The notes: a model not told the origin generated them from the sequence alone. Shown: positions 5,441-23,637, counted from the first letter of the stretch. The stretch is 64,000 nucleotides of DNA from an uncultured bacterium (GCA_963845185.1 CAWJRG010000006.1:1-64000), one strand, 5' to 3'. Numbers and translations: made by a program.

Positions 5441-5446
5441 ATTCCC

Positions 5447-5475
5447 TTGACATTGTTATTTGCTTGATGTATACT
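5447..5475 (+). promoter_or_regulatory. Sigma70-like promoter of the GH74 operon
   Basis: TTGACA-17 nt-TATACT. Confidence 0.75.
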
Positions 5476-5476
5476 A

Positions 5477-5496
5477 TTACTAAATCGATTTCGTAA
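5477..5496. promoter_or_regulatory. Candidate LacI-type operator
   Basis: 20-bp palindrome TTACTAAATCGATTTCGTAA with 9/10 pairs and a central CG, directly after the -10 box. Confidence 0.6.
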
Positions 5497-5555
5497 GATG
5501 CATGCTGCATATTTAAGCCTAAAATTTTCATGCTTTTTTTGGGAGAGTTACTTTA

Positions 5556-8234
5556 ATGAATAACAGGAAAAAATCAAACACACCTTTAAAGAAAATAATA
5601 TTGCTGTTTATATTTGTTTTAATTCTTAAAAATATTTCAGCATATACATGGAAACCCGTTGTAGTACCCGCGGGCGGCACCATCACGGGAATTGTTTACA
5701 GCAAGGTCTCCCAGGGACTCATTTATGCCCGCACCGATATGGGCGGCGCCTATCGCTGGAATAGCGCCACCAGCACCTGGATTCCATTGACCGACTGGCT
5801 CGGCGACTGGAACCTGTACGGCATTGAAAGCATCGCGCCCGATCCGGTGAACGCCAACATAGTCTATGCGGCCATCGGCCAGACATATAATAATACAGAC
5901 GGCTATATCATAGCTTCCTCGGACCAGGGGAGTACCTGGACCCAGTACTCAATCCCGGCCTTAATCGGAGCTAACAACGGCGGCAACGACGCAGGAGAAC
6001 GTCTTGCTGTAGACCCAAACCTTACATCCATCCTGTATTTCGGGTCGCGGAGTAACGGCCTGTGGAAAAGCACAAACTCAGCCGCCAACTGGAGCCAGGT
6101 GACATCTTTCCCTGTGAACGGCGATGCCGGAAATGGCCTGAGCTACGTTATCCTGGACCCTAAAAGCGGCACATCAGGTTCGCAGTCAAACACGGTCTAT
6201 GTGGGGGTGGAAGCCGCAGGTTCAGGCAACAGCAACCTCTACCGTTCGACCAACGGCGGCACCAGCTGGGCCGTGGTCCCCGGCGGCCCGTCCGGCATGA
6301 TCACAATACAAGCATCCCTCGGGACAGACGGAAACCTCTGGATAGTTTATGACGACAGCAACAGTTACAACAACGGCCAGATATGGAAGCTCAACACAGG
6401 CACGCTGGCATGGACCAATGTGTCACCGTCAAACGGCCCGGCAAGCGGCGGTGGTTACAGCGGGATATGCGTGGACGCACAGAACGCCCAGCACGCGGCA
6501 GTCACAACCATGGACTGGTGGGGCGGCCCTGACAAATGTTACCAGACCACGAACGGCGGGACTTCCTGGACAGTAATTTCAAACGTGCAAAACAGCTGGG
6601 ATGGCGGGCCCTACGCCGTCTATAACAACAACGGCGCGCTCTGGACACGGTTTTGCAGCACTTACGACGGCGGCGCCTGGTATATGAACTCAATCAAGAT
6701 AGACCCTTTTAATTCAAACAATGCTATTTATACAACAGGAGGCGGACTTTGGACTACCACAAACGTCCAGGCCTCATCCCAGCCGCAGGGCATCACATGG
6801 ACATTTACTGACTACGGCATAGAGCAGACTGCGGTCCTTTTCCTGAACGCGGCCTATAAGAACGGGGTCTTTTTCAGCTGCCTTGGCGATGTGAGCGGAA
6901 TGCGATACACCAACCTCGACAGCCCGGCCCCTAATAAATACTGCCCTTCGGTCGGCAACATCAACTGCCTTGACTTTGCCGAGAACAACACCAATATCGC
7001 GGCACGCGTGGGCAGCAGCGGCGCCGTCGCTTCAGACACGGCCTTTTCCTCGGACAACGGGCAGACATGGACGCCTGGCTCTACAGCACCGCCGGGTTAC
7101 ACCACCGACAATGAGATGGGCTCTGTGGCGGTCGCTGCCGACGGCTCGCGTGTGATAGTCTGCCCTTTCAGCGGCTATGGAAACCCGGCTTACACCACCA
7201 ACAGCGGCAGCAGCTGGACCACCTGCAACGGCCTGTCTTCAGGTTCATACCTGGACTCGGACCGTGTCAATGCATCCATCTTTTTCGCCACCAACGGAAG
7301 CACACTTTACCTCAGCACTGACAGCGGCGCGAATTTCAGCGCTGTCAACACATTCTCAGGGACCGGCGCTCCCCGTACTGTATTCGGGCTGACAGGCGAG
7401 GTATGGGTGGCCACAGGAAACGGCCTATACCGTTTTACCAACAATGGCTCGACAATGACGACCATTTCCAATGTTTCTTCAGCCAACTCAGTAGGGTTCG
7501 GCATGGCTGCATCCGGGCAGTCGCATCCGGCTGTCTACCTGACGGGAAACGTGGGCGGGACATACGGGTTTTACCGCTGTGACGACGGAGCAGGGAACGC
7601 GTGGGTGAGGATAAACGACAACAACCACCAGTATGGTTACGGAGCCTGGTGCGGCGGTGATGAAGGAATATACGGCAGGATGTATGTCGGGACAAACGGC
7701 CGCGGGACGCTTTATTGCGACAGCGCCGTAACCGGCACTGCAACAAACACGCCAATTATAACTTCAACATTCACGACTACTCAAACACGCACACCAGTGC
7801 CGACCGGTACAGTAACTTTCACGCCAACGCCAATGCCTGCAATGTCGCTGACAAAAACTGTAAATAAAGCATCTGTTACGCTTGGAGACACAGTCACATT
7901 TACACTTTCCTACCAAAATACAGGTTCTGTTACAGCGCCGAATGTGCCGCTATGGGACACTATACCAAGCTGCGTTTCCTATATCGGCAGCAGCCCGGCT
8001 GCGACGCAGAACGGCAGCCTGCTCAACTGGAACCTTGGAAACATTAATTCCGGCGGCAGCGGAAGCGTAACATGGTGGGGCGTGGTCACATGCTATTCAT
8101 TCACCCCGCTTTTTAACAAGATGTATTATTTTGCTTATTGTGACAAAAAGTTTTTTACGGACATATACAATTATTACAATGATTTTGCCCGGGCTTATGA
8201 CCCGTATAAAAAGAAATTGCAGGAGATGGAGTAA
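5556..8234 (+). CDS. Secreted GH74 xyloglucanase-like glycoside hydrolase with a truncated DUF11 domain and aromatic tail (unit A1)
   Basis: Signal peptide; GH74 motifs GGTITGIV, YARTDMGGAYRW, GERLAVDPN and YVGTNGRG; BNR/Asp-box repeats (STNGGTSW). DUF11-like LTKTVNK...GDTVTFTL...LWDTIP near the C-terminus. Confidence 0.9.
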   Translation: MNNRKKSNTPLKKIILLFIFVLILKNISAYTWKPVVVPAGGTITGIVYSKVSQGLIYARTDMGGAYRWNSATSTWIPLTDWLGDWNLYGIESIAPDPVNANIVYAAIGQTYNNTDGYIIASSDQGSTWTQYSIPALIGANNGGNDAGERLAVDPNLTSILYFGSRSNGLWKSTNSAANWSQVTSFPVNGDAGNGLSYVILDPKSGTSGSQSNTVYVGVEAAGSGNSNLYRSTNGGTSWAVVPGGPSGMITIQASLGTDGNLWIVYDDSNSYNNGQIWKLNTGTLAWTNVSPSNGPASGGGYSGICVDAQNAQHAAVTTMDWWGGPDKCYQTTNGGTSWTVISNVQNSWDGGPYAVYNNNGALWTRFCSTYDGGAWYMNSIKIDPFNSNNAIYTTGGGLWTTTNVQASSQPQGITWTFTDYGIEQTAVLFLNAAYKNGVFFSCLGDVSGMRYTNLDSPAPNKYCPSVGNINCLDFAENNTNIAARVGSSGAVASDTAFSSDNGQTWTPGSTAPPGYTTDNEMGSVAVAADGSRVIVCPFSGYGNPAYTTNSGSSWTTCNGLSSGSYLDSDRVNASIFFATNGSTLYLSTDSGANFSAVNTFSGTGAPRTVFGLTGEVWVATGNGLYRFTNNGSTMTTISNVSSANSVGFGMAASGQSHPAVYLTGNVGGTYGFYRCDDGAGNAWVRINDNNHQYGYGAWCGGDEGIYGRMYVGTNGRGTLYCDSAVTGTATNTPIITSTFTTTQTRTPVPTGTVTFTPTPMPAMSLTKTVNKASVTLGDTVTFTLSYQNTGSVTAPNVPLWDTIPSCVSYIGSSPAATQNGSLLNWNLGNINSGGSGSVTWWGVVTCYSFTPLFNKMYYFAYCDKKFFTDIYNYYNDFARAYDPYKKKLQEME

Positions 8235-8235
8235 A

Positions 8236-11200
8236 ATGCCAAAGGTAAAGGCAAAAGAAAAGCGCGGCAGAGAAGGGGCTGGTAGAAATAATTCAGCAAT
8301 ATATTTTATTTTTTTTATACTGATATTAATGCCTTTTTCTGCCTTTGCCACTTCAACTATTCAGAACCTGGCAGTATCGCCGGGGACTGTATCGGCGGGG
8401 CAGAACGTAACAATAACATTTTCATTTATGAGCACAAATACAGGATGCAAAGTAGCTTATTTTGCGGCTTTATCGAACCAGTGCGCACTGCAAAACGCTG
8501 GGACAGTGGGGCAGGCAGTACTGGTAAATGAGGGTGGAATAAATACACCCTGCTGCAATGCGCAGGTAAACGGCGGAAGGACCAGCCAGTGCGACGGGGA
8601 CAACACCTATCACGCTTCAACGGAAACTACATGCGGCATGGAATCAGGCGGAGGGCCTATTTACATGACCGTGCCTTCAAGCTGGGCAAACGGCACATAT
8701 TACGCGATAGTGGCGGTGAGGGATTGCAATATATACCTGAACCCATCATGTTGCACGAATATGGACAACCAATATTGCGTGTCATTTACCGTGGGCGTGG
8801 CAGGTTCGCCGACAAATACGCCATTGCCGACAAGGACAACGACGCCCACGCCCGTGCCTGTCGGGATTATTGTCAATGTGGCGCAGATAGGTTTCGGCAA
8901 TTCGAGCAGCGCTTCTTTTAATGTTTTATCGCCAACGCAGACAAGCACACAGCAGTCAAACCCGACTTTTACACGAACTTCAACGATGACAAATACAAGG
9001 ACAAGCACCCCATCGTCCACAAATACAAACACGAATACATTCACGCCAACAAACACGGTTACTTTGACGTGGACAAGCACACTACAGAATACAGTTACAT
9101 TAACGGCGACAGGGACGAACACGGCGGTAAATACAGGCACAAGTACAGCGACAAAAACAAACACTGCAACATCTACACTTACTTCAACCTTGACAAATAC
9201 ACAAGTCAACACAGCGACTTTAACAACAACAGGAACAAACACGCCGGTAAATACAGGGACAAGCACAGCGACACCTGCGCTGTCAGCGACGAGGACAAAT
9301 ACTGCAACTTTGACATATACAGTGACATTAACAAATACACCATTGCCGACAAAGACAAATACAGTTACTTTGACGTGTACAAGTACGCCACAAAATACAA
9401 TTACATTAACAGCGACAGGGACAAATACACAATTGCCAACAGGAACAAGCACACAGTTTCCTTCGCCTTCAGTTACGGCGTCCATGCCAGTGACAAGGAC
9501 AAGCACGAGTACAAATACGCCAATACCGACTGGTACAAGCACAGCGACATTTACGCTTACAACGACAAGAACAAACACCGCAACTACGACTTATACGTTG
9601 ACATACACGTCAACATTTACAGTTACTCTGACAGGGACAAGCACACTACAGAATACAGTTACATTAACGGCGACAGGGACGAACACGGCGGTAAATACAA
9701 GCACAAGTACAGCGACAAAAACAAACACTGCAACATCTACACTTACTTCAACCTTGACAAATACACCGGTCAACACAGCGACTCTAACAGCGACAGGGAC
9801 AAACACGGTGGTAAATACAAGTACAAGCACAGCGACAAGAAAAACAAATACGTTGACATATACTGGAACTATGACAGCGACAAACACGGCTACATTGACA
9901 TTCACGACTACAATAACTCAGACAAACACGCCCACTTATACAGTGACATTAACTTACACTAGGACGGTTACTTCTACAAATACCGATACGCCGGTTGTAT
10001 CGATAACGCCGACATATACAGCAACAGTATTCACATGGACAATTACACAGACATTTACAATATCGCCAACGATCACGCTGACAGACACGCCTTTGCCGAC
10101 AGGAACAAATACAGTCACGCCCACATTAACGGCAACCAGAATAAACACGGCAACGTCGACATTCACCGCGACACTTACACCGACATACACAGTTACTTAT
10201 ACTTTAACAAATACGCCGGTAAATACGGCAACTTTAACAGTGACAGGTACAAGCACAAATACATTTACATTAACAGCAACAAGGACGAGCACGACAACAA
10301 ATACTCAGACATGGACGCCGACGTCTACTCTGATAAATACCCCTACAGACACGGCGACTTTAACAGAGACAGGCACAAGTACAGCGACAAGGACAAATAC
10401 AACGACAAATACGCAAACATATACAATTACTTTGACAGATACAAGCACAACGACGCTGACATTAACGCCTACAAATACTGCTTCGTTCTCAGTAACATCA
10501 ACATTTACAAGAACAGTAACACCAACAATTACTAATTCGCCAATAGTATCGGTAACGCCGACTTATACAGCTACGGTTTTCACATGGACAATTACGCAGA
10601 CATTTACAGTATCACCAACGATTACATTGACAGATACACCGCTACCGACAGGAACTAATACAGGCACACCTACGTTTACTGAGACAAGAACAAATACTTC
10701 AACACCTACGCCGACATATACAGTTATTCTGACATTGACAAACACGCCACAGAACACGGTAACTTTAACAGATACAGGTACAAATACGCCATTACCTACA
10801 GGCACAAGCTCAGATACGCCTACGCTTACTGCAACAAGGACAAACACATTAACAAATACGGCTACATATACAGCCACCCAGACTTTGACAAACACTCCAC
10901 AAAACACAGTAACTTTAACAGCTACAGGGACAAATACACCCTCGGGGACGCCAACGCTTACTGTAACAAGGACAAACACAGAGACAAATACACTTACATA
11001 TACAGTCACTCTGACGCTGACAAACACTCTACAAAATACAGCATCTTTAACAGCTACAGCTACAAATAGTTGTGCCTGTACAGGGACTCCTACTTATACA
11101 GCGACAATTTTTACAGCTACAATTACATTGACATATACAGTGTCACCGACAGTTACCTTGACAAATACGCTGTCGCCTACAACAACAAATACAGCGACAT

Positions 11201-12318
11201 CTACTCTAACAAGAACAAATACACTGACATGGAGTCCAACTAATACACCCACACGTACAAATACATTGACGGTTACTAATACAATGACAGGCACAAATAC
11301 GCTTACATTTACAGAGACATTGACATTCACAACAACAGTTACTGCAACATTAACCAATACGCAAATTGTTTCAGAGACACCTACTTATACAGCGACAATT
11401 TTTACGGTAACTATTACACCGACAATTACAATAACAGCTACAAACACGCCGGTAAATACAGCAACAGACACGCCTACAGCAACGCCGACAATAGCTATAA
11501 ACCTGGTGGCAAATATAACAGTATTGCCGGCAAGCGCCGGAAGCGGGCAGGATATAACAGTAGTTATGCTGGTAGTAAACACAGGTGGAAACGATGCGGA
11601 TAACGTAGTACCGTCAGCTTTGTCGCAATCCGGCGGAGGAACAGCCACGCTGGTAAGCGGGCCAAGCCCTGCAAGTACAACAATAAAGGCAAATTTGCAG
11701 GCATCATTTACATGGGTATATATTACAGCTGCGACAGGCAGCATAATATTCAGCGGGACTGCAAGCGGTACGGACGCAGTGGACGGAGTTAGCACGACAA
11801 GCGCTTTAGTGTCGAGCAATACATTTATATGCGCGACGGTTACAATGACAGTGACGGGGACAGTTACAGTCATGGCAACAGCCACAGTGACATCTACAAC
11901 AGCGACGACGGCGACAGCGACAACAGAATTTACTCGTACGAGCACGCAAATTCCTGCGGTCACGGTGACACAGACACCCGAGGTTACAGTTGTTCCAACA
12001 GGAGTGACAATAGGGCCGATAAAGCCGTACCCGAACCCGATAAATCCTGTAATTTGGCCGTTAAAAATTGCGGTTAACGTAATGCCTAACGATATGGACA
12101 GCATAACGGTAAAAATATATACGTCAGCGTACAGGCTGATAAGGGAAGAAACATTCGATGGAACTGAAGTGAAACAAGTAGCAGGCGGAGTAATTTTGAC
12201 ATGCGATAGCAGCGAGCTTAACGGCCTAAGCGCGGGGACATATTACTACGTGGTAATTGCGGAAAAAAGCGGAGTGAAGGTAAGGTCCAAAATAGACAAG
12301 ATTATTATATTAAAATAA
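8236..12318 (+). CDS. Secreted Thr-rich stalk protein: Cys-rich N-domain, TxT repeat stalk, Ig-like domain, T9SS-like C-terminal domain (unit B1)
   Basis: ATG at 8236 after AGGAG; signal peptide ending SAFA; C-terminus PYPNP...LSAGTYYYV...KIDKIIILK. Confidence 0.85.
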   Translation: MPKVKAKEKRGREGAGRNNSAIYFIFFILILMPFSAFATSTIQNLAVSPGTVSAGQNVTITFSFMSTNTGCKVAYFAALSNQCALQNAGTVGQAVLVNEGGINTPCCNAQVNGGRTSQCDGDNTYHASTETTCGMESGGGPIYMTVPSSWANGTYYAIVAVRDCNIYLNPSCCTNMDNQYCVSFTVGVAGSPTNTPLPTRTTTPTPVPVGIIVNVAQIGFGNSSSASFNVLSPTQTSTQQSNPTFTRTSTMTNTRTSTPSSTNTNTNTFTPTNTVTLTWTSTLQNTVTLTATGTNTAVNTGTSTATKTNTATSTLTSTLTNTQVNTATLTTTGTNTPVNTGTSTATPALSATRTNTATLTYTVTLTNTPLPTKTNTVTLTCTSTPQNTITLTATGTNTQLPTGTSTQFPSPSVTASMPVTRTSTSTNTPIPTGTSTATFTLTTTRTNTATTTYTLTYTSTFTVTLTGTSTLQNTVTLTATGTNTAVNTSTSTATKTNTATSTLTSTLTNTPVNTATLTATGTNTVVNTSTSTATRKTNTLTYTGTMTATNTATLTFTTTITQTNTPTYTVTLTYTRTVTSTNTDTPVVSITPTYTATVFTWTITQTFTISPTITLTDTPLPTGTNTVTPTLTATRINTATSTFTATLTPTYTVTYTLTNTPVNTATLTVTGTSTNTFTLTATRTSTTTNTQTWTPTSTLINTPTDTATLTETGTSTATRTNTTTNTQTYTITLTDTSTTTLTLTPTNTASFSVTSTFTRTVTPTITNSPIVSVTPTYTATVFTWTITQTFTVSPTITLTDTPLPTGTNTGTPTFTETRTNTSTPTPTYTVILTLTNTPQNTVTLTDTGTNTPLPTGTSSDTPTLTATRTNTLTNTATYTATQTLTNTPQNTVTLTATGTNTPSGTPTLTVTRTNTETNTLTYTVTLTLTNTLQNTASLTATATNSCACTGTPTYTATIFTATITLTYTVSPTVTLTNTLSPTTTNTATSTLTRTNTLTWSPTNTPTRTNTLTVTNTMTGTNTLTFTETLTFTTTVTATLTNTQIVSETPTYTATIFTVTITPTITITATNTPVNTATDTPTATPTIAINLVANITVLPASAGSGQDITVVMLVVNTGGNDADNVVPSALSQSGGGTATLVSGPSPASTTIKANLQASFTWVYITAATGSIIFSGTASGTDAVDGVSTTSALVSSNTFICATVTMTVTGTVTVMATATVTSTTATTATATTEFTRTSTQIPAVTVTQTPEVTVVPTGVTIGPIKPYPNPINPVIWPLKIAVNVMPNDMDSITVKIYTSAYRLIREETFDGTEVKQVAGGVILTCDSSELNGLSAGTYYYVVIAEKSGVKVRSKIDKIIILK

Positions 12319-12486
12319 TATAGCAGGCTACTGAAAATTCCCTAAACAATGAGGTTTAAATTATGCATTTTAGGCAGCAATGATTTTTAATTATTATTTA
12401 AAAAAATTTACCGACTCTTTATTTGTAAAACTCCTCAAAACTTTTCATGATAAATATTGTCTAATAATTTAAGGAATTTAAACTAA

Positions 12487-12515
12487 TTGACAAAGCAAAA
12501 ATATATGAATATACT
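12487..12515 (+). promoter_or_regulatory. Sigma70-like promoter of unit A2-B2
   Basis: TTGACA-17 nt-TATACT. Confidence 0.7.
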
Positions 12516-12673
12516 TATAATATAGTAAGATAATTACATTTAATTGGAACGAAAGAACTTACTATTATGTTTGTTGATTTTTAAACACAAGAGTATTTTA
12601 AAAAAAGCGTCCGGATGAATAATCATCAAGGGGATGGTGATTTTCAAGACCGGGAACGAAGGAGAGGGGTTTT

Positions 12674-13684
12674 ATGGTTAAGAAAAGCATTAAAAACTTT
12701 ATATTCCCAATAATTCTGGCTATTATTGTCTTTATTTTATTTTACGTGCCTGTCAAGGTTTACGGCCTGGCAATCACTTCTGCCCAGCTTCTTATCTCAG
12801 CTGATGATTGTTTTGCCGCATACATTGACGGCTGCCTTATTTATAATACCGGCAAGATTACATCCAACAGCCCATGGAACGAAACCTTTACCTTCACCGG
12901 TGCACAAATAACAAATTGCCTGACGACATGCGGGCCGCATGTGCTTGCCGTAAATTATTACGATACCGAAGGAAACATAATAAGGGTAACATATAAGCTG
13001 CTGATAAATTTTGACAACGGCAACAGCACGGTTGCTTACAGCGACGGGAACCCGGCAACCACAAAACAGATGTACAACGGCAATGTGTTTTCAACGTCCA
13101 ACGCCCAGTTTTTCCCGACAGGATGGAACACTTTAAGTTATGACGATTCCGCGTGGACAGTGACGGCTCATACATGCGAGGCGGACGGATGTACCTGTGA
13201 TTCAATAGCAGACCCGGTTTTTAGCGGCACCTATGGCGGTTGGGTGCCATGGATTACATATAATTCCGGATGTTCCGTAATAACTGAAGGCGACTCGAAC
13301 CTTGTAAGGCAGTATTTTACCACTCCGTGCGCGCCGGTAAGCATAACAAAAACTATAAACACAAATTACGCGATGCTCGGGCAGACATTAACGTATTGTT
13401 TTAGTTACTATAACCACGATACCGTGTCGGATACTTTTAATTTGTGGGATACCTTACCGGCTGTTACGACATTTGTGGGCTGCAACAGCGGATGCACAAC
13501 CCAGACATCAGGATCAAGTACGGTTGTGAGCTGGTCAATAACTGCGGCTTCAAATACGGCTGGGTCAGTATGCTGCTGGGTTGTCGCAAGTTCGTATCCG
13601 TTTTTCGAGATACCGCCCGGGAATTTTTTTGCCTTTATAAAAGATGACAATTTATGTACCGAAGACAAGCCAAGCAGGAGATGA
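12674..13684 (+). CDS. Secreted Cys-rich lectin/galactose-binding-like protein with a truncated DUF11 domain and aromatic tail (unit A2)
   Basis: Signal peptide; motifs ISADDCFAAYIDG and GWNTLSYDDSAW; DUF11-like ITKTINT...GQTLTYCF...LWDTLP. Confidence 0.75.
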   Translation: MVKKSIKNFIFPIILAIIVFILFYVPVKVYGLAITSAQLLISADDCFAAYIDGCLIYNTGKITSNSPWNETFTFTGAQITNCLTTCGPHVLAVNYYDTEGNIIRVTYKLLINFDNGNSTVAYSDGNPATTKQMYNGNVFSTSNAQFFPTGWNTLSYDDSAWTVTAHTCEADGCTCDSIADPVFSGTYGGWVPWITYNSGCSVITEGDSNLVRQYFTTPCAPVSITKTINTNYAMLGQTLTYCFSYYNHDTVSDTFNLWDTLPAVTTFVGCNSGCTTQTSGSSTVVSWSITAASNTAGSVCCWVVASSYPFFEIPPGNFFAFIKDDNLCTEDKPSRR

Positions 13685-13690
13685 AATATA

Positions 13691-16600
13691 ATGCTCATGA
13701 AAGAGGCAAAAGAAAAATGCAATAAGATTTTAAAAAAAATTTTGCCTTTAAGAATTATATTCTTTTTCCTTTTGACAATTTTTATTTACAACAACGCTAA
13801 TGCAACTTCATATATCCAAAATCTGGCAGTTTCACCGGGGACCGCGTTTACCGGGCAGAATGTTACTATAACTTTTCAGTTTTATGGAACCAATACGGGA
13901 TGCAGGATTGCTTACATGGCAGGGCTGTCAAACCAGTGCGCGTTTCAAAGCGGAGGCACGGCGGGCCAGGCATTGCTTGTTTCTGAGGCAGGCATGGATG
14001 TTTTAAACAATAACGTGTCCGGCGGAAGAACGAGCCAGTGCTACGGCGTAACAACATCGGCATGGACAAACAGCAATGACCCGACCTGCGGCATGGAGGC
14101 CGGCGGAGCGCCGATTTACATGACCGTGCCGACCAACTGGACAGCAGGGATATATTACGCCATAGTAGCGGTGAGGGACTGCAATCTGTACGCAAACCCA
14201 AGCTTAGCTTTTGACAATCAGACTTGTTTGGCTTTTAATGTACTTGTTCCGACACCGACATTTACATACACTCCTACCGCAACTGCTACGGGCGTACAGA
14301 ATATAGCCAACAGCAGTTATGGATATACCAACAGCGTTGCTTATATAATGTCCAATGTATCGCCGACTCTTACCAAAGTTTACACACGCACTTCAACAAG
14401 CACAATAACGGTTACAAATACCCCGACATATACTTACACGCGTACGCCTACAAATACGCAGACGCCTACGCCAACAGCAACGCCGACATCCACAAACACG
14501 CTGTCGCCGACATACACGTACACGCGGACAGATACATATACAAATACCTCCACTGCTACAATAACAGCAACGCCTACTTTTACTTCAACCGTGACAAATA
14601 CAGTGTCAATGACATTTACCAGGACAAATACACCTACATACACGAATACACCAACGCCGACGGCGACGCTGACATATACAAACACAATGTCGCCGACATA
14701 TACATACACGCGTACATCGACATACACAAATACGCCAACGCCTACAGCAACGTCGACATATACAAATACGCTGACGCCGACATACACATACACACGTACA
14801 TCGACATATACTAATACGTCAACGTATACATATACGGATACAGATACAATGACAGCGACACCGACATATACTCCAACAGTGACAATTACAGTGTCCGTGA
14901 CATTTACAAGGACAAACACGCTCACATACACACTGACTGACACGCCAACAGCGACGCCTACATTTACAAATACGGTATCGCCGACTCCCACATACACGCA
15001 GACAGTGACATATACATACACGGATACAGTTACAGTGACAGCGACGCCTACTTATACTCCAACAGTGACAATTACAGTGTCCGTGACATTCACAAGGACA
15101 TATACACCCACATTTACATTGACTGACACGCCTACAGCGACACCAACATATACAGACACAGCATCACCGACACCCACATACACGAGGACAGTGACATATA
15201 CATACACATACACAGACACAATGACAAATACGCCGACAGTAACAAATACAATAACGCCGACATATACAATAACAATGACATTTACAATTGTAATACTGTC
15301 GGCAACATATACGCCGACATACACGATAACCAGGACAAATACGCCTACAGATACAATAACGCTGACATACACACTGACAGATACGCCGACGTCAACGCCA
15401 ACATATACAGACACGACATCGCCGACACCCACATACACGAGGACAGTAACATATACATACACATACACAGACACAATGACAAATACGCCGACAGTGACAA
15501 ACACAATAACGCCGACATACACAATAACGATGACGTTCACTGTTGTAATACTATCAGCGACATATACGCCGACATACACAATAACCAGGACAAATACGCC
15601 TACAGATACAATAACGCTGACATATACACTGACAGATACGCCGACATCAACGCCAACATATACAGACACGACATCGCCGACACCCACATACACGAGGACA
15701 GTAACATATACATACACATACACAGACACAATGACGAATACGCCGACAGTGACAAATACAATAACGCCCACATACACAATAACAATGACGTTCACTGTTG
15801 TAATACTGTCGGCGACATATACGCCGACATACACAATAACCAGGACAAATACGCCTACAGATACAATAACGCTGACGGATACATTGACATATACGCCGAC
15901 GGCAACACCTACATATACAAACACGACATCGCCGACGCCCACATACACGCAGACAGTGACATATACAAGCACGAATACGGCGACATACACGAATACAGTG
16001 ACGCCGACATACACGATAACAATGACATTTACTGTTGTAATATTGTCGGCGACATATACACCGACATACACGGCAACGAGGACAATAACCGTGACAGACA
16101 CGCAATCGGATACGCCGACTTCAACGCCTACATATACAAACACAACATCGCCAACGCCCACATATACGCAGACAGTGACATATACAAGCACGAATACTGC
16201 GACATACACGAATACGGTAACGCCGACATACACGATAACAATGACATATACAGTTGTAATATTGTCGGCGACGTTCACACCGACATATACGGCAACTAGG
16301 ACAATAACAGTGACAGACACGCAATCGGATACGCCGACTTCAACGCCGACATACACAAACACGTTATCGCCGACAGACACCTACACAGTGACAGATACAT
16401 ACACAAGCACAGCGACACCGACATTGACGGATACAGTACAAAATACGCCGACATATACGGATACGCTGACAACAACGCCGACAGACACGGCAACGTCCAC
16501 GTACACTGATACAAAAACAGACACGGTAACAGATACGCCGACATTTACATATACAGAAACGCCAACTTATACGCCGATAAATACGGCAACGCCTACATAT

Positions 16601-17980
16601 ACAAATTCGCCAATAGATACGCCAACAGATACACTAACAATAAGCCCGACGCCAAGCAGCACGCTGACATCTACATTGACATATACAGAAACGCTGACAA
16701 ATACGCCAACGTTTACGTCAACCATAAGCCCAACTTTGAGCAGCACGCTGACATTAACATTCACGCACACATTTACCCCGACATATACAGATACGCCAAC
16801 AGATACACCAACGTTAACGTCAACTGCAAGCCCTACATTCAGCAGAACCCTGACACAGACGTACACATATACAGCAACAGCAACTATTACAATAACCTAT
16901 ACAAATACGAATACACTGACAACAACACACACAGGTACAAACACAGCTACGGTATCGATAACGGATACAATGACGTGCACGGCGACAGCCACAATAACAA
17001 TAACGCCGGTTCCGTTCCCGTATGAGCTGAATATAAGCGTATATAACGAGGCAGGAGAACTGGTGAAAGTGATAACGAATACAGCTGCATCGGAAGAAAC
17101 GCAGCAAATGCTTTTGTTATTGAACGGGAGCCAGACAGGAATAATATCGCCTGGCTCAGGGACGGCGCTGACAATAAGGATGCCCGGCGTAGAAACGCCT
17201 GACCAGCAAAAAGGCGGATACGCTGACTTTACGTGGGATGGTACAACCAGCGCGGGACAGAATGTAGGGAACGGGGTATATTATATAAAGGCAACAATTA
17301 CGGATCCGTACGGGCACAGCGAGGTGATAACAAAGGAAATAACATCAATGGAAAGCAACCAGTATGTAGAACTTAAAATATTCAACTCGGCAGGGGAGCT
17401 TGTAGACGACATAAAAGAGGAAAAGAGCGTAGCGGGAAATATAGCGCTGAAGGTAAAGGATACAATAGGACTAAATGAAGACAGCAGCAATACAGTAAAT
17501 ATAATATACGGGGACGAGGTAGGAGACATAATATACTGGAACGGGGAGAACGCGCAGGGGACAATAGTGCAGAGCGGGACCTACGAAATAGAGATAGTGG
17601 CGAGGACATCAGACGGGAGGATAATAACGACAAGCAAGACAGTGACGGTATTGGTAGAGGGGAAAGAATTCATAAGCAATATAAAAGTACAGCCGAATCC
17701 TTTTGTAACAAGCAGGGTAAACGGAGGTGTAATCGGCAAGGTGCTGTTTACGTGGACAAGTAGCAGCACAGGGACTGTGAAGATAAAGATATATAACATA
17801 GCAGGGGAATTAATCAGGACGATAGGAGCAATGGTGCAGGACGGGCAGGCGCAATGGGACGGAAAGACAGTGGCGGGGAACCCTGCCTCGAGCGGAATTT
17901 ATATATGCGTACTGGAAGCCAAAAGCGACACTGGCCATAGCGAAAGGCAAATAGTGAAGTCTGCGATAATCAACAAATGA
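13691..17980 (+). CDS. Secreted Thr-rich stalk protein with a Cys-rich N-domain and tandem FlgD-Ig/T9SS-like C-terminal domains (unit B2)
   Basis: Signal peptide; TxT repeats; repeated I[YF]N.AGEL[VI]...W[DN]G...G.Y modules; QPNPF. Confidence 0.85.
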   Translation: MLMKEAKEKCNKILKKILPLRIIFFFLLTIFIYNNANATSYIQNLAVSPGTAFTGQNVTITFQFYGTNTGCRIAYMAGLSNQCAFQSGGTAGQALLVSEAGMDVLNNNVSGGRTSQCYGVTTSAWTNSNDPTCGMEAGGAPIYMTVPTNWTAGIYYAIVAVRDCNLYANPSLAFDNQTCLAFNVLVPTPTFTYTPTATATGVQNIANSSYGYTNSVAYIMSNVSPTLTKVYTRTSTSTITVTNTPTYTYTRTPTNTQTPTPTATPTSTNTLSPTYTYTRTDTYTNTSTATITATPTFTSTVTNTVSMTFTRTNTPTYTNTPTPTATLTYTNTMSPTYTYTRTSTYTNTPTPTATSTYTNTLTPTYTYTRTSTYTNTSTYTYTDTDTMTATPTYTPTVTITVSVTFTRTNTLTYTLTDTPTATPTFTNTVSPTPTYTQTVTYTYTDTVTVTATPTYTPTVTITVSVTFTRTYTPTFTLTDTPTATPTYTDTASPTPTYTRTVTYTYTYTDTMTNTPTVTNTITPTYTITMTFTIVILSATYTPTYTITRTNTPTDTITLTYTLTDTPTSTPTYTDTTSPTPTYTRTVTYTYTYTDTMTNTPTVTNTITPTYTITMTFTVVILSATYTPTYTITRTNTPTDTITLTYTLTDTPTSTPTYTDTTSPTPTYTRTVTYTYTYTDTMTNTPTVTNTITPTYTITMTFTVVILSATYTPTYTITRTNTPTDTITLTDTLTYTPTATPTYTNTTSPTPTYTQTVTYTSTNTATYTNTVTPTYTITMTFTVVILSATYTPTYTATRTITVTDTQSDTPTSTPTYTNTTSPTPTYTQTVTYTSTNTATYTNTVTPTYTITMTYTVVILSATFTPTYTATRTITVTDTQSDTPTSTPTYTNTLSPTDTYTVTDTYTSTATPTLTDTVQNTPTYTDTLTTTPTDTATSTYTDTKTDTVTDTPTFTYTETPTYTPINTATPTYTNSPIDTPTDTLTISPTPSSTLTSTLTYTETLTNTPTFTSTISPTLSSTLTLTFTHTFTPTYTDTPTDTPTLTSTASPTFSRTLTQTYTYTATATITITYTNTNTLTTTHTGTNTATVSITDTMTCTATATITITPVPFPYELNISVYNEAGELVKVITNTAASEETQQMLLLLNGSQTGIISPGSGTALTIRMPGVETPDQQKGGYADFTWDGTTSAGQNVGNGVYYIKATITDPYGHSEVITKEITSMESNQYVELKIFNSAGELVDDIKEEKSVAGNIALKVKDTIGLNEDSSNTVNIIYGDEVGDIIYWNGENAQGTIVQSGTYEIEIVARTSDGRIITTSKTVTVLVEGKEFISNIKVQPNPFVTSRVNGGVIGKVLFTWTSSSTGTVKIKIYNIAGELIRTIGAMVQDGQAQWDGKTVAGNPASSGIYICVLEAKSDTGHSERQIVKSAIINK
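14601..17445 (+). repeat. Near-identical ~2.85-kb direct repeat, copy 1 (copy 2 at about 20258-23102)
   Basis: Constant 5657-nt offset at every point checked (14601/20258, 16380/22037, stop codons 17980/23637), with only scattered substitutions. Confidence 0.9.
15181..15945 (+). repeat. Intragenic tandem repeat with a 255-nt (85-aa) unit, about 3 copies, followed by shorter related units
   Basis: CACGAGGACAG recurs at 15181, 15436 and 15691; VILSAT codons start at 15290, 15545, 15800, 16037 and 16256. Confidence 0.85.
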
Positions 17981-18138
17981 CAAGTTAAAGCGCACTTATC
18001 CTGCAGTATCTGCTTAATTAAGCCAATTTAAAAAAATTTACTAAACCCATATAAAAATTATCTATTTTTCATCAAAATTTATCAAAACTTTTATCTATAA
18101 ATATTGTCTAATTTAGTGTTTAAAAAATTTAAATAGTT

Positions 18139-18167
18139 TTGACAAAACAGTTATTTGTTTATATAAT
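18139..18167 (+). promoter_or_regulatory. Sigma70-like promoter of unit A3-B3
   Basis: TTGACA-17 nt-TATAAT (perfect consensus). Confidence 0.75.
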
Positions 18168-18210
18168 TGACATTAGGATAGTAATTTATTAAAAGGAGGC
18201 GGGCAGGCAT

Positions 18211-19329
18211 ATGTTACGGGTTAATCAGTACCTGGCTACAATAGCCATATTAATGTCATTAATTTTTCCGTCAATAGCCCAAGGCGCTTGCACACCAACC
18301 GCTGCCCAGATATGCGTGGGTTCGGATGATGAATCATATGTATGGATAAACAACAATATATTGAACGGCGGCGCGGTTTTTGATACTAATAGCTGTACAA
18401 GCCAGACATGCGTAAACGTACCGGCCAGTTATATTAACGTTACGGGAACCAATGAGATTGCGGTTGAGAATATTAATGTGACGGCAGGCTATGTGTGGTC
18501 GAGCTGGGTCCTGCAGATAACCTGCTCAAGCGGGCTGGATGAATATATAAGCAGTTCCGACGGCAATGTGAGCTATTATAACCAGGTATCGTCTACTGCT
18601 GCGCCGCCAGCCAATGACTCGAACAGCCTTACTTGGTATGACCCAAATTATTCAAACACTACGGGATGGGGAGTCCCTGTCGCTGTTACAAACAAGGCTT
18701 CAATTTATTGCGTGCCGGCAACAGATCCAAGGACAGGTACGTTTCTTGTGCCGCTTGGGTATTCATGCGGCAGCGGAGACGAGCCCGGGTCTTCAGACGA
18801 GGCGCCGGCAGGCGAAATCTTATACTTTCGCGAGAATTTTACCTTGAGCCAGTTAACCCCAATGACACCAAACCCGCAATCCCCGACACCAACTATAACA
18901 CCATCAAATACGCCGAATTCTTCACAAACCCCTACAAACACACCTACTTTCACGCCTACGCCGACTCCGGTAATGAATGTAACAAAGACAGTAAATAAAC
19001 CAATCGTTACTCTTGGAGATACAGTCACATTTACGCTCACTTACCACAATACAGGCGCTGTAACGGCCCCGAACGTGCCGTTATGGGATACCATACCCAA
19101 TTGCATTTCATATGTTGGCAGCAGTCCTGCCGCAACACAGAACGGAAGCCTGCTTGTATGGAACCTGGGCAATATAAACGCAGGCGGAAGCGGATCGGTA
19201 ACCTGGTGGGGTGTAATCAGTTGCTATCCTCTTAACCCGTTTTTTATAAGGAAATATTATTTTGCATGTTTGGATAAAAAGTTTTTTATTGCCGATTGCA
19301 GGCTTGATTTATTAATCATGGACCAGTAA
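18211..19329 (+). CDS. Secreted Cys-rich lectin-like protein with a Pro/Thr linker, truncated DUF11 domain and aromatic tail (unit A3)
   Basis: RBS AGGAGG; signal peptide ending AQG; VGSDDESYVWIN motif; DUF11 region nearly identical to that of A1. Confidence 0.75.
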   Translation: MLRVNQYLATIAILMSLIFPSIAQGACTPTAAQICVGSDDESYVWINNNILNGGAVFDTNSCTSQTCVNVPASYINVTGTNEIAVENINVTAGYVWSSWVLQITCSSGLDEYISSSDGNVSYYNQVSSTAAPPANDSNSLTWYDPNYSNTTGWGVPVAVTNKASIYCVPATDPRTGTFLVPLGYSCGSGDEPGSSDEAPAGEILYFRENFTLSQLTPMTPNPQSPTPTITPSNTPNSSQTPTNTPTFTPTPTPVMNVTKTVNKPIVTLGDTVTFTLTYHNTGAVTAPNVPLWDTIPNCISYVGSSPAATQNGSLLVWNLGNINAGGSGSVTWWGVISCYPLNPFFIRKYYFACLDKKFFIADCRLDLLIMDQ

Positions 19330-19353
19330 AAGAGAAAGCAGGAGATGAATAAA

Positions 19354-22300
19354 ATGTTTAAAAAAGAGGCAAAAGAAAAACAAGATGCCGGTATTAAAAA
19401 TCTTTTGCCTGAAATTTTTTTAAGAAAGGGGGATAAAAACAGGCATAAAAAATTTTTATTTGTATTAATAATAGCAACTTTTATATGCGGCAGTGCTTTC
19501 GCAACATCATCCATACAGAGCCTGACTGTGTCGCCTGCGACTTTATCAGCCGGCCAAAACGTAACAATAACATTTCAATTCGAAAGCAACAATACCGGAT
19601 GCAAGACAGCTTATTTCGCGGCCCTGTCAAACCAGTGCACTTTGCAAAGCGCCGGCGCATCAGGCCAGGCAATACTTGTAAATGAAAACGGAATAAATGT
19701 TGCCTGCTGCAGCGCACAGGCAAATGGAGGCAGGACAAGCCAGTGCTCTGGAAACAGCACCTGGTATACCAGCAATTCCGCTACCTGCGGCATGGAACCA
19801 GGCGGAGCCCCGATTTACATGACCGTGCCTTCAAGCTGGGCAAACGGCACGTATTACGCCATAGTTGCGGTAAGGGACTGCAACATATACGCAAATCCAG
19901 GTCTTGCTATAGATAACCAGGGATGCGTCCCGTTTGTTGTAGGCCCATCACCGACAAATACGCCTTTACCCACAAATACAGCTACGCCAACAACTGTTCC
20001 GCCGGGATTCATTGTGAATGTAGCGCAAATAGGTTATGGCAACGCAAGCAATGCTGTTCTTCAGGTAGTATCGCCCACGCTGACAAACACACAACCATCA
20101 AGCCCGACTTATACACGGACACCAACTCCAACATATACAAGAACAATTACTCCATCGTCAACCTACACATATACATACACTGATACGCCAACTTATACCT
20201 ATACGGATACATATACAATGACACCGACGCCGACTTATACTCCAACCGTGACAATCACAGTGTCAATGACATTTACCAGGACAAATACGCCTACATACAC
20301 GAATACACCAACGCCGACGTCAACGCCTACATATACAAATACGATGTCACCGACATATACATTCACGCGTACATCGACATACACAAATACGCCAACGCCT
20401 ACAGCAACGTCGACATATACAAATACGCTGACGCCGACATACACATACACACGTACATCGACATATACTAATACGTCAACGTATACATATACGGATACAG
20501 ATACAATGACAGCGACACCGACATATACTCCAACAGTGACAATTACAGTGTCCGTGACATTTACAAGGACAAACACGCTCACATACACACTGACTGACAC
20601 GCCAACAGCGACGCCGACATTTACAAACACGGTATCGCCGACTCCCACATACACGCAGACAGTGACATATACATACACGGATACAGTTACAGTGACAGCG
20701 ACGCCTACATATACTCCAACAGTGACAATTACAGTGTCCGTGACATTCACGAGGACATATACACCCACATATACATTGACTGACACGCCTACAGCGACAC
20801 CAACATATACAGACACAGCATCACCGACACCCACATACACGAGGACAGTGACATATACATACACATACACAGACACAATGACAAATACGCCGACAGTGAC
20901 AAATACAATAACGCCGACATATACAATAACAATGACATTTACAATTGTAATACTGTCGGCAACATATACGCCGACATACACGATAACCAGGACAAATACG
21001 CCTACAGATACAATAACGCTGACATACACACTGACAGATACGCCGACGTCAACGCCAACATATACAGACACGACATCGCCGACACCCACATACACGAGGA
21101 CAGTAACATATACATACACATACACAGACACAATGACAAATACGCCGACAGTGACAAACACAATAACGCCGACATACACAATAACGATGACGTTCACTGT
21201 TGTAATACTATCAGCGACATATACGCCGACATACACAATAACCAGGACAAATACGCCTACAGATACAATAACGCTGACATATACACTGACAGATACGCCG
21301 ACATCAACGTCAACATATACAGACACGACATCGCCGACACCCACATACACGAGGACAGTAACATATACATACACATACACAGACACAATGACGAATACGC
21401 CGACAGTGACAAATACAATAACGCCCACATACACAATAACAATGACGTTCACTGTTGTAATACTGTCGGCGACATATACGCCGACATACACAATAACCAG
21501 GACAAATACGCCTACAGATACAATAACGCTGACGGATACATTGACATATACGCCGACGGCAACACCTACATATACAAACACGACATCGCCGACGCCCACA
21601 TACACGCAGACAGTGACATATACAAGCACGAATACGGCGACATACACGAATACAGTGACGCCGACATACACGATAACAATGACATTTACTGTTGTAATAT
21701 TGTCGGCGACATATACACCGACATACACGGCAACGAGGACAATAACCGTGACAGACACGCAATCGGATACGCCGACTTCAACGCCTACATATACAAACAC
21801 AACATCGCCAACGCCCACATATACGCAGACAGTGACATATACAAGCACGAATACTGCGACATACACGAATACAGTGACGCCGACATACACGATAACAATG
21901 ACATATACAGTTGTAATATTGTCGGCGACGTTCACACCGACATATACGGCAACTAGGACAATAACAGTGACAGACACGCAATCGGATACGCCGACTTCAA
22001 CGCCGACATACACAAACACGTTATCGCCGACAGACACCTACACAGTGACAGATACATACACAAGCACAGCGACACCGACATTGACGGATACAGTACAAAA
22101 TACGCCGACATATACGGATACGCTGACAACAACGCCGACAGACACGGCAACGTCCACGTACACTGATACAAAAACAGACACGGTAACAGATACACCGACA
22201 TTTACATATACAGAAACGCCAACTTATACGCCGATAAATACGGCAACGCCTACATATACAAATTCGCCAATAGATACGCCAACAGATACACTAACAATAA

Positions 22301-23637
22301 GCCCGACGCCAAGCAGCACGCTGACATCTACATTGACATATACAGAAACGCTGACAAATACGCCAACGTTTACGGCAACCATAAGCCCAACTTTGAGCAG
22401 CACGCTGACATTAACATTCACGCACACATTTACCCCGACATATACAGATACGCCAACAGATACACCAACGTTGACGTCAACTGCAAGCCCTACATTCAGC
22501 AGAACCCTGACACAGACGTACACATATACAGCAACAGCAACTATCACAATAACCTATACAAATACGAATACACTGACAACAACACACACAGGTACAAACA
22601 CAGCTACGGTATCGATAACGGATACAATGACGTGCACGGCGACAGCCACAATAACAATAACGCCGGTTCCGTTCCCGTACGAGCTGAATATAAGCGTATA
22701 TAACGAGGCAGGAGAACTGGTGAAAGTGATAACGAATACAGCTGCATCGGAAGAAACGCAGCAAATGCTTTTGTTATTGAACGGGAGCCAGACAGGAATA
22801 ATATCGCCTGGCTCAGGGACGGCGCTGACAATAAGGATGCCCGGCGTAGAAACGCCTGACCAGCAAAAAGGCGGATACGCTGACTTTACGTGGGATGGTA
22901 CAACCAGCGCGGGACAGAATGTAGGGAACGGGGTATATTATATAAAGGCAACAATTACGGATCCGTACGGGCACAGCGAGGTGATAACAAAGGAAATAAC
23001 ATCAATGGAAAGCAACCAGTATGTAGAACTTAAAATATTCAACTCGGCAGGGGAGCTTGTAGACGACATAAAAGAGGAAAAGAGCGTAGCGGGAAATATA
23101 GCGCTTAAGATAAAGGATACAATAGGGTTAAATGCGGACAGCAGCAACAGCGTGAACATAATATACGGGGACGAGACCGGGGATATTATATACTGGAACG
23201 GCGAGAATTCGCAGGGAGCAATAGTACAGAGCGGGACCTACGAAATGGAAATAGTGGCAAGAACATCAGACGGCAGGATAATAACGACAAGCAAGACAGT
23301 GACGGTGCTGGTTGAGGCTAAAGAATTTGTAAACAATATAAAAGTCCGGCCCAATCCTTTTGTAACAAGCAGGGTAAATGGAGGCATGGTAGGCAATGCT
23401 TTGTTTACGTGGACAAGCTGGAGCACAGGAAACGTCAGGATAAAGATATATAACATAGCAGGTGAATTAATAAGGACGATAGGGGCAAAGGTGCAGGATG
23501 GGCAGGCGCAATGGGATGGGAAAACAGTTGGAGGGAATCCTGCATCAAGCGGAATTTACATATGCGTACTGGAAGCCAAAAGCGACACTGGACATAGCGA
23601 AAGACAAATAGTTAAGTTTGCGATAATTAGTAAATGA
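19354..23637 (+). CDS. Secreted Thr-rich stalk protein with a Cys-rich N-domain and FlgD-Ig/T9SS-like C-terminal domains (unit B3)
   Basis: Paralog of B2. Start set at 19354 by RBS spacing and alignment with B1/B2 (ORF track gives 19345). Confidence 0.85.
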   Translation: MFKKEAKEKQDAGIKNLLPEIFLRKGDKNRHKKFLFVLIIATFICGSAFATSSIQSLTVSPATLSAGQNVTITFQFESNNTGCKTAYFAALSNQCTLQSAGASGQAILVNENGINVACCSAQANGGRTSQCSGNSTWYTSNSATCGMEPGGAPIYMTVPSSWANGTYYAIVAVRDCNIYANPGLAIDNQGCVPFVVGPSPTNTPLPTNTATPTTVPPGFIVNVAQIGYGNASNAVLQVVSPTLTNTQPSSPTYTRTPTPTYTRTITPSSTYTYTYTDTPTYTYTDTYTMTPTPTYTPTVTITVSMTFTRTNTPTYTNTPTPTSTPTYTNTMSPTYTFTRTSTYTNTPTPTATSTYTNTLTPTYTYTRTSTYTNTSTYTYTDTDTMTATPTYTPTVTITVSVTFTRTNTLTYTLTDTPTATPTFTNTVSPTPTYTQTVTYTYTDTVTVTATPTYTPTVTITVSVTFTRTYTPTYTLTDTPTATPTYTDTASPTPTYTRTVTYTYTYTDTMTNTPTVTNTITPTYTITMTFTIVILSATYTPTYTITRTNTPTDTITLTYTLTDTPTSTPTYTDTTSPTPTYTRTVTYTYTYTDTMTNTPTVTNTITPTYTITMTFTVVILSATYTPTYTITRTNTPTDTITLTYTLTDTPTSTSTYTDTTSPTPTYTRTVTYTYTYTDTMTNTPTVTNTITPTYTITMTFTVVILSATYTPTYTITRTNTPTDTITLTDTLTYTPTATPTYTNTTSPTPTYTQTVTYTSTNTATYTNTVTPTYTITMTFTVVILSATYTPTYTATRTITVTDTQSDTPTSTPTYTNTTSPTPTYTQTVTYTSTNTATYTNTVTPTYTITMTYTVVILSATFTPTYTATRTITVTDTQSDTPTSTPTYTNTLSPTDTYTVTDTYTSTATPTLTDTVQNTPTYTDTLTTTPTDTATSTYTDTKTDTVTDTPTFTYTETPTYTPINTATPTYTNSPIDTPTDTLTISPTPSSTLTSTLTYTETLTNTPTFTATISPTLSSTLTLTFTHTFTPTYTDTPTDTPTLTSTASPTFSRTLTQTYTYTATATITITYTNTNTLTTTHTGTNTATVSITDTMTCTATATITITPVPFPYELNISVYNEAGELVKVITNTAASEETQQMLLLLNGSQTGIISPGSGTALTIRMPGVETPDQQKGGYADFTWDGTTSAGQNVGNGVYYIKATITDPYGHSEVITKEITSMESNQYVELKIFNSAGELVDDIKEEKSVAGNIALKIKDTIGLNADSSNSVNIIYGDETGDIIYWNGENSQGAIVQSGTYEMEIVARTSDGRIITTSKTVTVLVEAKEFVNNIKVRPNPFVTSRVNGGMVGNALFTWTSWSTGNVRIKIYNIAGELIRTIGAKVQDGQAQWDGKTVGGNPASSGIYICVLEAKSDTGHSERQIVKFAIISK
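20258..23102 (+). repeat. Near-identical direct repeat, copy 2 of 14601-17445
   Basis: Same 5657-nt offset as copy 1. Confidence 0.9.

Follow-up and report, generated by a model that had tools for sequence, protein, structure and literature searches.

The stretch of DNA examined here, referred to as the window, comprises 64,000 nucleotides of contig CAWJRG010000006.1 (positions 1-64000; assembly GCA_963845185.1) from an uncultured bacterium which, by the name its source gives for a homologue, is a member of the Goldbacteria group. Between positions 5556 and 23637 it carries three pairs of genes, all on the same (plus) strand. In each pair the upstream gene, designated A, encodes a protein with an incomplete domain of the DUF11 family, and the downstream gene, designated B, encodes a long threonine-rich stalk together with a short peptide isolated between linkers. 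The initial annotation of the locus proposed that the peptide of B supplies the strands missing from A; the two elements are accordingly termed tag and catcher below. The coordinates and motifs it gave for the elements of A and B were all correct. Its count of three pairs is right for the window and too low for the genome, which has five.

The first pair consists of A1 (5556-8234, 892 residues) and B1 (8236-12318). A1 is composed of a signal peptide, a BNR/sortilin-like head with a weak match to F510_1955-type glycosylhydrolase-like proteins, a Thr/Pro linker, the catcher (7830-8087), and a tail. The catcher corresponds to the first seven strands of a DUF11 (CLIPPER) domain, with a Lys in the motif LTKT (codon AAA, 7854-7856) and an Asp in the motif LWDTIP (codon 7956-7958). 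After its final DUF11-like strand, SVTWWGVV, which reaches to 8087, comes an aromatic tail of 48 residues (8088-8231) in which a DUF11 match is absent. B1 has a signal peptide, a Cys-rich head (about 8350-8823), the tag GIIVNVAQIGFGNSSSASFNV (8863-8925; Asn codon 8875-8877), a Thr-rich stalk, and a C-terminal domain (about 12004-12312) that weakly matches the C-terminal domain of PorU (E 0.0019). The stop codon of A1 (8232-8234) is separated by one base from the ATG of B1 (8236), an arrangement indicative of translational coupling, and the ribosome-binding site of B1, GGAG, lies inside the last codons of the A1 tail.

The other two pairs are built on the same plan. A2 (12674-13684, 336 residues) has a signal peptide, a Cys-rich lectin-like head with a weak rhamnosidase-N-like match, a catcher (13325-13588; Lys codon 13349-13351, Asp codon 13448-13450) whose last strand SVCCWVVA ends at 13588, and a tail of 31 residues (13589-13681). 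[quoted passage not shown] A3 (18211-19329, 372 residues) consists of a signal peptide, a Cys-rich lectin-like head, a Pro/Thr linker, a catcher (18961-19218; Lys codon 18985-18987, Asp codon 19087-19089) ending with SVTWWGVI at 19218, and a 36-residue tail (19219-19326). B3 (19345-23637) contains a signal peptide, a head (about 19507-19989), the tag GFIVNVAQIGYGNASNAVLQVV (20005-20070; Asn codon 20017-20019), a Thr-rich stalk (about 20071-22794), and a C-terminal FlgD_ig/CHU_C domain of T9SS type (about 23425-23583).

All three tags are 20-22 residues long and are flanked on both sides by Pro/Thr linkers, in agreement with the isolated peptides of about 20 residues originally described. The stalks that follow them extend over roughly 900-1000 residues, with Thr at every second residue. 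The Cys-rich heads of the B proteins, about 160 residues each, have no family match in Pfam, and a search of the ESM Atlas with the head domain gave a best score of 0.76 and no lead. Stand-alone heads of this kind end before the tag, so that the tag is not a part of the head fold. A fusion of A and B by read-through or frameshifting is ruled out, because B has its own start codon, ribosome-binding site, and signal peptide. By eye, B2 and B3 are near-identical in stalk and C-terminal domain over roughly 1,100 residues (14400-17980 compared with 20100-23637), and their heads and tags diverge, with 57% identity across the first 270 residues. This suggests either recent gene conversion or the swapping of a tag-bearing end onto a common stalk.

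The truncation of the catchers is defined by comparison with Pfam DUF11 (PF01345, 114 positions), in which A1 covers positions 3-80 and A3 positions 3-79 (44.4 bits each), A4 positions 3-80 (40.9 bits), and A5 positions 2-86 (25.1 bits), A4 and A5 being the catchers encoded outside the window. These four belong to the family by gathering score. A2 covers positions 2-73 with 15.1 bits, which is under the cut-off of 24.6, and still aligns with the other catchers. Of five complete paralogous DUF11 domains used as a control, three matched the Pfam model, reaching positions 107, 109, and 99, and two had no match. Thus, the closing strands are indeed absent from the DUF11 domain of A, as had been claimed. 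The further statement that A stops after the last of these strands holds for the DUF11 match and not for the protein, which continues into the tail. None of these five catchers constitutes a complete DUF11 domain in one polypeptide, their matches ending at profile positions 73-86; nor is the family triad of Lys, Asp, and Asn contained in one domain, the Asn being located in the tag of the partner protein.

Comparison with relatives leads to the same boundary. When a profile made from 17 complete paralogous domains, 123 columns long, is compared by hhalign with an alignment of 27 catchers from 13 genomes, the catchers match its columns 2-86 (E 6e-11, 97% probability). The 27 sequences are 24-72% identical to A3, and all of them share the Lys, the Asp, the Thr after it, one Pro, one Asn, and one Trp. 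The Lys and Asp are spaced by 33-34 residues, compared with 33 in structure 9IFR, which was solved in the 2025 survey that renamed DUF11 as CLIPPER and which contains an intramolecular isopeptide bond, Lys715-Asn806, catalyzed by Asp748 (PMC12617251). In the consensus of a larger profile, for which unrelated public proteins supplied 596 DUF11 repeats, the Lys occupies column 6, the Asp column 37, and the Asn column 96 (counted by eye). Catchers terminate at columns 78-84 and therefore stop just short of the strand that bears the Asn. Among 35 DUF11-like domain matches in the genome, four end both at columns 78-84 and at the C-terminus of the protein, and these are A1-A4; A5 was detected by separate searches.

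The fold predicted for the catcher may be the CnaA-like beta-sandwich of the family, with other sandwich folds scoring about as well. In an AlphaFold2 model of the A3 catcher with its tail, residues 1-90 form seven strands with a predicted local distance difference test score (pLDDT) of 93-98. The top structural match of the model is 9IFR (Z 9.8, root-mean-square deviation 2.1 over 90 residues, model residues 1-91 being aligned to 19-114 of the 123-residue chain), a match tied within 1 Z unit with immunoglobulin (Ig)-like sandwiches of integrin, adaptin, and CBM2. The resemblance to CBM2-type cellulose-binding modules (Z 9.1) is also detected by Foldseek (E 4e-4). At the sequence level, a Protein Data Bank search with the catcher profile retrieves 9IFR with E 1.8e-4, amid spurious armadillo-repeat matches; in the same database the complete-domain queries gave nothing and a single catcher sequence reached E 0.81. 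A search of 1.84 billion representative sequences with the catcher-alignment profile returned giant multi-repeat DUF11 proteins as its best 150 matches, which are uninformative on the split form.

The tags resemble what the catchers lack. All 22 tags share the leading Gly and the Asn, and the flanking linkers vary freely. When the 22 tags are compared by hhalign with the complete domains, they align best with columns 88-118, and their Asn then coincides with the invariant Asn. Together, catchers (columns 2-86) and tags (columns 88-118) tile the complete domain with no overlap, and the reactive residues are divided between the two chains, Lys and Asp being on A and Asn on B. In protein numbering, the residues that would react are Lys767 and Asp801 of A1 with Asn214 of B1 (counted from ATG 8236), Lys226 and Asp259 of A2 with Asn204 of B2, and Lys259 and Asp293 of A3 with Asn225 of B3. 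For a wider comparison, a C-terminal sub-profile was taken as the last 33 positions of the 596-repeat profile, and 16 tags were scored against 50,000 windows of this genome as controls. The tags of B1, B3, and B4 and the tag of one relative outscore every control, and four further tags are outscored by just 18-148 of the controls. The tag Asn aligns to the conserved Asn of the profile (G-x-I-V-N-V-A compared with G-t-v-i-t-N-t-A). The likeness of tags to DUF11 closing strands is strong for B1 and B3 and weak for tags of the GVQN class, B2 included. A pattern for tags flanked by Pro/Thr, applied to 18,907 open reading frames (ORFs) of this genome, picked three of 25 raw matches, all three of which are in tag-bearing genes; the tags of B1 and B4 escape the pattern. 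Pfam searches with the tails and with isolated tag peptides, B2 not being among the latter, gave no DUF11 match.

Catchers and tags fall into matching classes: the partner is a G-x3-N tag for each of the six catchers that lack Cys and a GVQN tag for each of the 16 that contain it, a correspondence that represents two clades rather than 22 independent events and is therefore descriptive only. Catchers of the Cys class share four conserved Cys residues (in the contexts Y-C, G-C-x2-G-C, and V-C), none of which occurs in the other class; the four probably form two disulfides, which would fit folding outside the cytoplasm.

The strongest line of evidence connecting catcher with tag is genomic linkage. 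The genome, which is 99% complete, contains five catchers and five tags, and every catcher lies directly upstream of a tag gene, which is well beyond chance. Of the two pairs outside the window, the one on contig 9 combines a GH5 cellulase with its own stalk gene, and the one on contig 1 places a 752-residue multi-domain protein upstream of a 3,445-residue protein that contains, besides a beta-helix domain and a B head, a tag at residue 722. Of 24 genomes of the order, 22 have strong catcher matches (E up to 1e-22), as do four of 75 other genomes of the phylum. In fetched loci of the order, 54 distinct catcher ORFs were examined, 10 of them cut by contig ends, which leaves 44 with readable surroundings. 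A tag gene lies beside 39 of these 44. In 34 cases the tag is detected by a hidden Markov model in the downstream gene on the same strand; two more catchers have divergent downstream tags found by eye; two stand directly after a tag-bearing B gene; and the tag of A5, which lies outside the fetched locus, is counted among the 39. The presence of the A and B pattern in related genomes, and the rarity of catchers with no partner, both of which had been named as tests of the proposal, are thus borne out. Homologue searches by word index returned six proteins for A and nine for B.

The arrangements found in relatives indicate which element of B accompanies the catcher. The tag is found after beta-helix or other domains as well as after the B head, and the B head also occurs solitary or fused directly to a complete DUF11 domain. 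Because the tag stands behind varied domains and B heads occur without catchers, the constant partner of the catcher is the tag and not the head. Moreover, four genomes contain a three-gene chain, in which a gene for a head with a catcher is followed by one for a B head, tag, linker, and catcher, and then by one for a beta-helix, tag, and stalk. The middle proteins, or adaptors (L061-L063 and L085, at G009:C21, G017:C18, G021:C38, and G023:C153), are about 405-460 residues long, a B head and a tag being joined in them by a Thr linker to a second catcher. Each is flanked by a gene that has a catcher only and by one for a beta-helix protein that has a tag of its own, an order that implies three-protein chains. 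Scaffold genes with two different tags stand behind two catcher genes in genomes G003 and G004 and behind three in G014. Adaptors and two-tag scaffolds together suggest chains and multi-enzyme assemblies that would be functionally cellulosome-like, and they fit the interchangeable heads envisaged in the initial annotation.

It should be noted that the A proteins do not end with the catcher. In most of the 27 catchers, the last strand leads directly into the motif [RS][YLF]P[FYWLM]...[ED][YF][FL]A, and the tails range from about 25 to 60 residues, with a hydrophobic span and a conserved Asn both absent. The tails of the window A proteins, of 31-48 residues, are aromatic and semi-conserved and match no DUF11 positions. 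In the A3 model, the tail (residues 91-122) has pLDDT values of 63-43 and no strands, so that completion of the fold by the tail of A itself is not seen. For A3 and the adaptor of G017 taken together, AlphaFold2 predicts the tails as disordered or as a short helix, with pLDDT 43-68. The tail may serve to cover the open groove of the catcher temporarily.

The secretion context differs for the two proteins of a pair. FlgD_ig matches of 75.2 bits in B2 and 70.4 bits in B3, relative to a cut-off of 27, identify both as carrying a sorting domain of type A T9SS cargo; their scores in TIGR04183, 22.3 and 20.5, are just under the cut-off of 23. In Pfam, a C-terminal domain of the FlgD_ig/CHU_C type is absent from A1-A3. 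The assignment of the anchor to B and not to A therefore stands for B2 and B3, and is weak for B1, for which the PorU-type match is the evidence. Because the sorting domain is on B only, A probably travels to the surface attached to B. Elsewhere in the genome there are more than 50 T9SS-type C-terminal domains below curated cut-offs, a SprA-like protein with four collinear matches, all sub-cut-off, and 40 PorV-like matches, every one below cut-off. Matches to the PorU model fall nearly all on the C-terminal sorting region, one of them spanning positions 335-442, and none is at cut-off. Several of the approximately 40 PorV/FadL-like barrel matches (e.g., C10:233331-233954, C5:276461-277078, and C1:135004-135696) lie beside genes for giant DUF11 surface proteins, and there may be a dedicated outer-membrane partner for every large adhesin.

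In our opinion, the best explanation of these observations, held with slightly more belief than doubt, is that A and B dock as the two halves of one CLIPPER domain. The likeliest reading of the sequences is strand complementation in trans, probably locked by a Lys-Asn isopeptide bond. Under this model, A and B would be exported separately by Sec, since both have signal peptides. The two-strand tag would then enter the catcher at its open edge or groove and complement it with beta-strands; Lys and Asn would meet beside the Asp, and an isopeptide bond would probably form autocatalytically. The product would have the topology of single-chain paralogues, namely head, CLIPPER domain, stalk, and sorting domain, and an enzyme or lectin would come to lie at the distal end of a stalk anchored to the cell. 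The initial claim that B supplies the missing strands of A is supported in part, by the tiling of profiles, the placement of Asn on Asn, and the strong tags of B1 and B3, and statistically weak for B2. More tentatively, and with somewhat more doubt than belief, we suggest that this could be the first natural covalent tag/catcher system, in which several orthogonal classes of split CLIPPER domains would irreversibly ligate glycoside hydrolases and lectins onto T9SS-anchored Thr stalks, adaptors and two-tag scaffolds would build chains and complexes of several enzymes, and cargo with no sorting signal would be carried out by its partner, giving a 'cellulosome' free of cohesins and dockerins.

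Several observations weigh against docking of this kind. The hhalign statistics for the tags are E 0.01 and 4% probability; eight of the 16 scored tags, mostly of the GVQN class, are outscored by 1,277-19,032 of the 50,000 controls, and the B2 tag, outscored by 2,507, has weak DUF11 likeness. An earlier C-terminal profile of 11 sequences, superseded by the 596-repeat profile, gave no significant tag. Neither of two modeling attempts produced a usable contact between catcher and tag. For the A3 catcher and tail with the B3 tag (32 residues), complex prediction run with no controls gave scores of 0.19 and 0.23 relative to a mark of 0.32, a result that weighs neither way. In the 220-residue adaptor segment of G017 (tag, 60-residue linker, and catcher), AlphaFold2 gave pLDDT 91-97 for the catcher and about 35 for an undocked tag, which was covered by three alignment rows and is probably not cognate to the catcher of its own chain. 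Moreover, the catcher by itself is modeled as a confident closed seven-strand sandwich, and seven-strand CLIPPER_2 domains exist (PMC12617251); taken together, these points mean that the catcher might be stable and functional with no partner. For five of the 44 catchers with readable surroundings, a tag gene was not found nearby. Catcher and tag counts can also be unequal (3:2 in G014:C59 and 3:1 detected in G019:C3), and in G002:C38 and G010:C86 a B gene with a single tag is followed by a further catcher gene. Finally, the semi-conserved aromatic tail has no place in the model, nor does A have a sorting domain that would fix the compartment of assembly.

Two of the orphan catchers, L095 (G018:C4) and L096 (G016:C22), have a stop codon right after ...ARYP and ...MRLP, respectively, and hence are tailless; the genes downstream of them are unrelated and cytoplasmic. 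These two may be decaying copies.

Some of the points above would fit an alternative in which complementation does not occur at all, the truncated DUF11 being an Ig-like module of seven strands that is sufficient by itself as a spacer or for binding, the B peptide a processing, glycosylation, or folding element, and A and B neighbors for another reason, such as binding of the A tail to the B head or co-expression. The confident fold of the lone catcher, its resemblance to CBM2-type modules, the GVQN tags with no significant DUF11 likeness, and the orphan catchers all favor this explanation. We consider it unlikely, albeit deserving of serious attention, since it must account for the tag being the constant neighbor of the catcher when B heads occur without catchers, for tags of the B1 and B3 type that beat 50,000 controls with Asn on Asn, for catcher and tag tiling a complete domain with no overlap, and for the presence of tag and catcher in one adaptor chain in four genomes. 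If docking does take place, it could proceed by strand complementation only, as a non-covalent association like that of chaperone-usher or type V pili, and Lys, Asp, and Asn would owe their retention to packing or hydrogen bonding. The evidence for docking drawn from genomes and profiles serves this version equally; isopeptide signatures are absent from some DUF11 domains (PMC12617251), and donor-strand systems in nature are mostly non-covalent (PMC9715654). The triad is invariant over 27 catchers and 22 tags, however, at identities down to 24%, when Lys is kept in just 15 of 17 complete paralogous domains, and a flexible peptide of 20 residues between linkers would be a weak anchor for an enzyme on a stalk of about 1000 residues. 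We regard purely non-covalent docking as quite improbable.

The recurrence of the tail motif directly behind the last strand, seen in most catchers, invites the view that the tail is the true functional element, either a new sorting or anchoring signal or a permanent self-cap, with A displayed independently of B. Such a role appears very improbable for an element of variable length with no hydrophobic span that is predicted to be disordered or a short helix, and it would leave both the conserved tag and the adjacency of the genes unexplained. Hardest to credit is the view of the split as a functionless remnant of decaying gene fission or insertion, or as an assembly artifact. The split does look as if about 250 codons had interrupted a complete head-DUF11-stalk gene, but it recurs, with reading frames and signal peptides intact and the triad invariant, in 22 of the 24 genomes of the order and four of the 75 others of the phylum, and five copies with different heads coexist in one nearly complete genome.

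Docking of split halves, as favored here, has counterparts among known systems, each of which differs from it in some respect. The catcher resembles the single-chain CLIPPER domain of 9IFR in sequence (44.4 bits in the family model), possibly in fold (Z 9.8, tied with other Ig-like sandwiches), and in Lys-Asp spacing, and the tag Asn falls on the family Asn. In the pairs described here, the domain is distributed over two genes, the half with Lys and Asp being C-terminal in A and the half with Asn internal in B, so that any bond would be intermolecular, unlike the bond of 9IFR. Isopeptag/pilin-C, SpyTag/SpyCatcher, and SnoopTag/SnoopCatcher are laboratory constructs derived from Gram-positive CnaB or pilin domains. 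As in the present case, these engineered pairs result from cutting an Ig-like isopeptide domain before its C-terminal strand or strands, the large part retaining Lys and the acidic residue and the peptide an Asn or Asp. Unlike them, the split described here would be natural and of CnaA-like CLIPPER origin, the tag is two-stranded and internal between linkers, and there are several tag classes accompanied by adaptors and multi-tag scaffolds. To our knowledge, autocatalytic isopeptide domains in nature have so far been described as intramolecular staples, and split forms as laboratory inventions. A natural split isopeptide domain was not found in the literature searched, a body that excludes bioRxiv supplements and subscription journals; papers on 'naturally split' proteins appear, judging by their titles, to concern inteins and ligation methods. 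The words 'split' and 'truncated' are absent from the CLIPPER survey (PMC12617251).

Completion of an incomplete Ig-like fold by the strand or strands of another chain is also the principle of chaperone-usher and type V pili. In those pili, like subunits are polymerized by means of a chaperone and usher or of a protease, whereas distinct cargo and stalk would be joined here one to one and with a reactive triad; no such helper has come to light for them, none having been specifically searched for. The archaeal thread of Sulfolobus acidocaldarius is a natural assembly in which donor-strand complementation is accompanied by an intermolecular isopeptide bond, proposed to form spontaneously (PMC9715654). 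As described there, however, the thread is a homopolymer in which an N-terminal alpha-amine is joined to an Asn two subunits away; it has no canonical Lys/Asp/Asn triad and does not derive from a split CLIPPER domain (PMC9715654). Cohesin-dockerin cellulosomes resemble the gene pairs in the placement of glycoside hydrolases and binding modules on cell-anchored scaffolds, and resemble the relatives in having multi-site scaffolds and adaptors. Docking by fold completion, possibly covalent, would contrast with the calcium-dependent non-covalent binding of cohesin and dockerin, neither of which was detected by Pfam in any of the six window proteins (E up to 0.1). A paper on cellulose and Goldbacteria mentions neither threonine linkers, T9SS, nor DUF11.

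If the proposal is correct, a protein 'superglue' was reached by evolution as a principle of assembly, and the display of enzymes with neither cohesins nor dockerins in a little-known cellulose-degrading phylum would be explained. The tag/catcher classes, possibly orthogonal, would be ready-made for protein engineering. The pairs also raise a question regarding T9SS-type export, namely whether a protein with no sorting domain can leave attached to one that has it.

The surroundings of the three pairs include a further stalk locus and a transposase gene. The contig begins within another Thr-rich stalk gene (1-2435), the end of which matches TIGR04183 with 32 bits (cut-off 23). The frame of this gene breaks near 1900-1996, where an ORF at 2-1996 overlaps one at 1899-2435; either a frameshift or an assembly error within the repeats could account for the break. 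It is followed at 2788-4228 by an N6/N4 DNA methylase gene (PF01555, E 4e-56) that overlaps a gene for a MutH/Sau3AI-like endonuclease (PF02976, E 1e-10), probably a small type II restriction-modification pair between two stalk loci. A LacI-family regulator (4412-5440) lies directly upstream of A1, and the first pair may be under sugar control through it. Just past the third pair is a DDE transposase (25610-27001; PF13751, PF01609, DUF772), and between the two, on the minus strand, are genes for a TauE-like exporter (23653-24426) and a family 2 glycosyltransferase (24462-25175).

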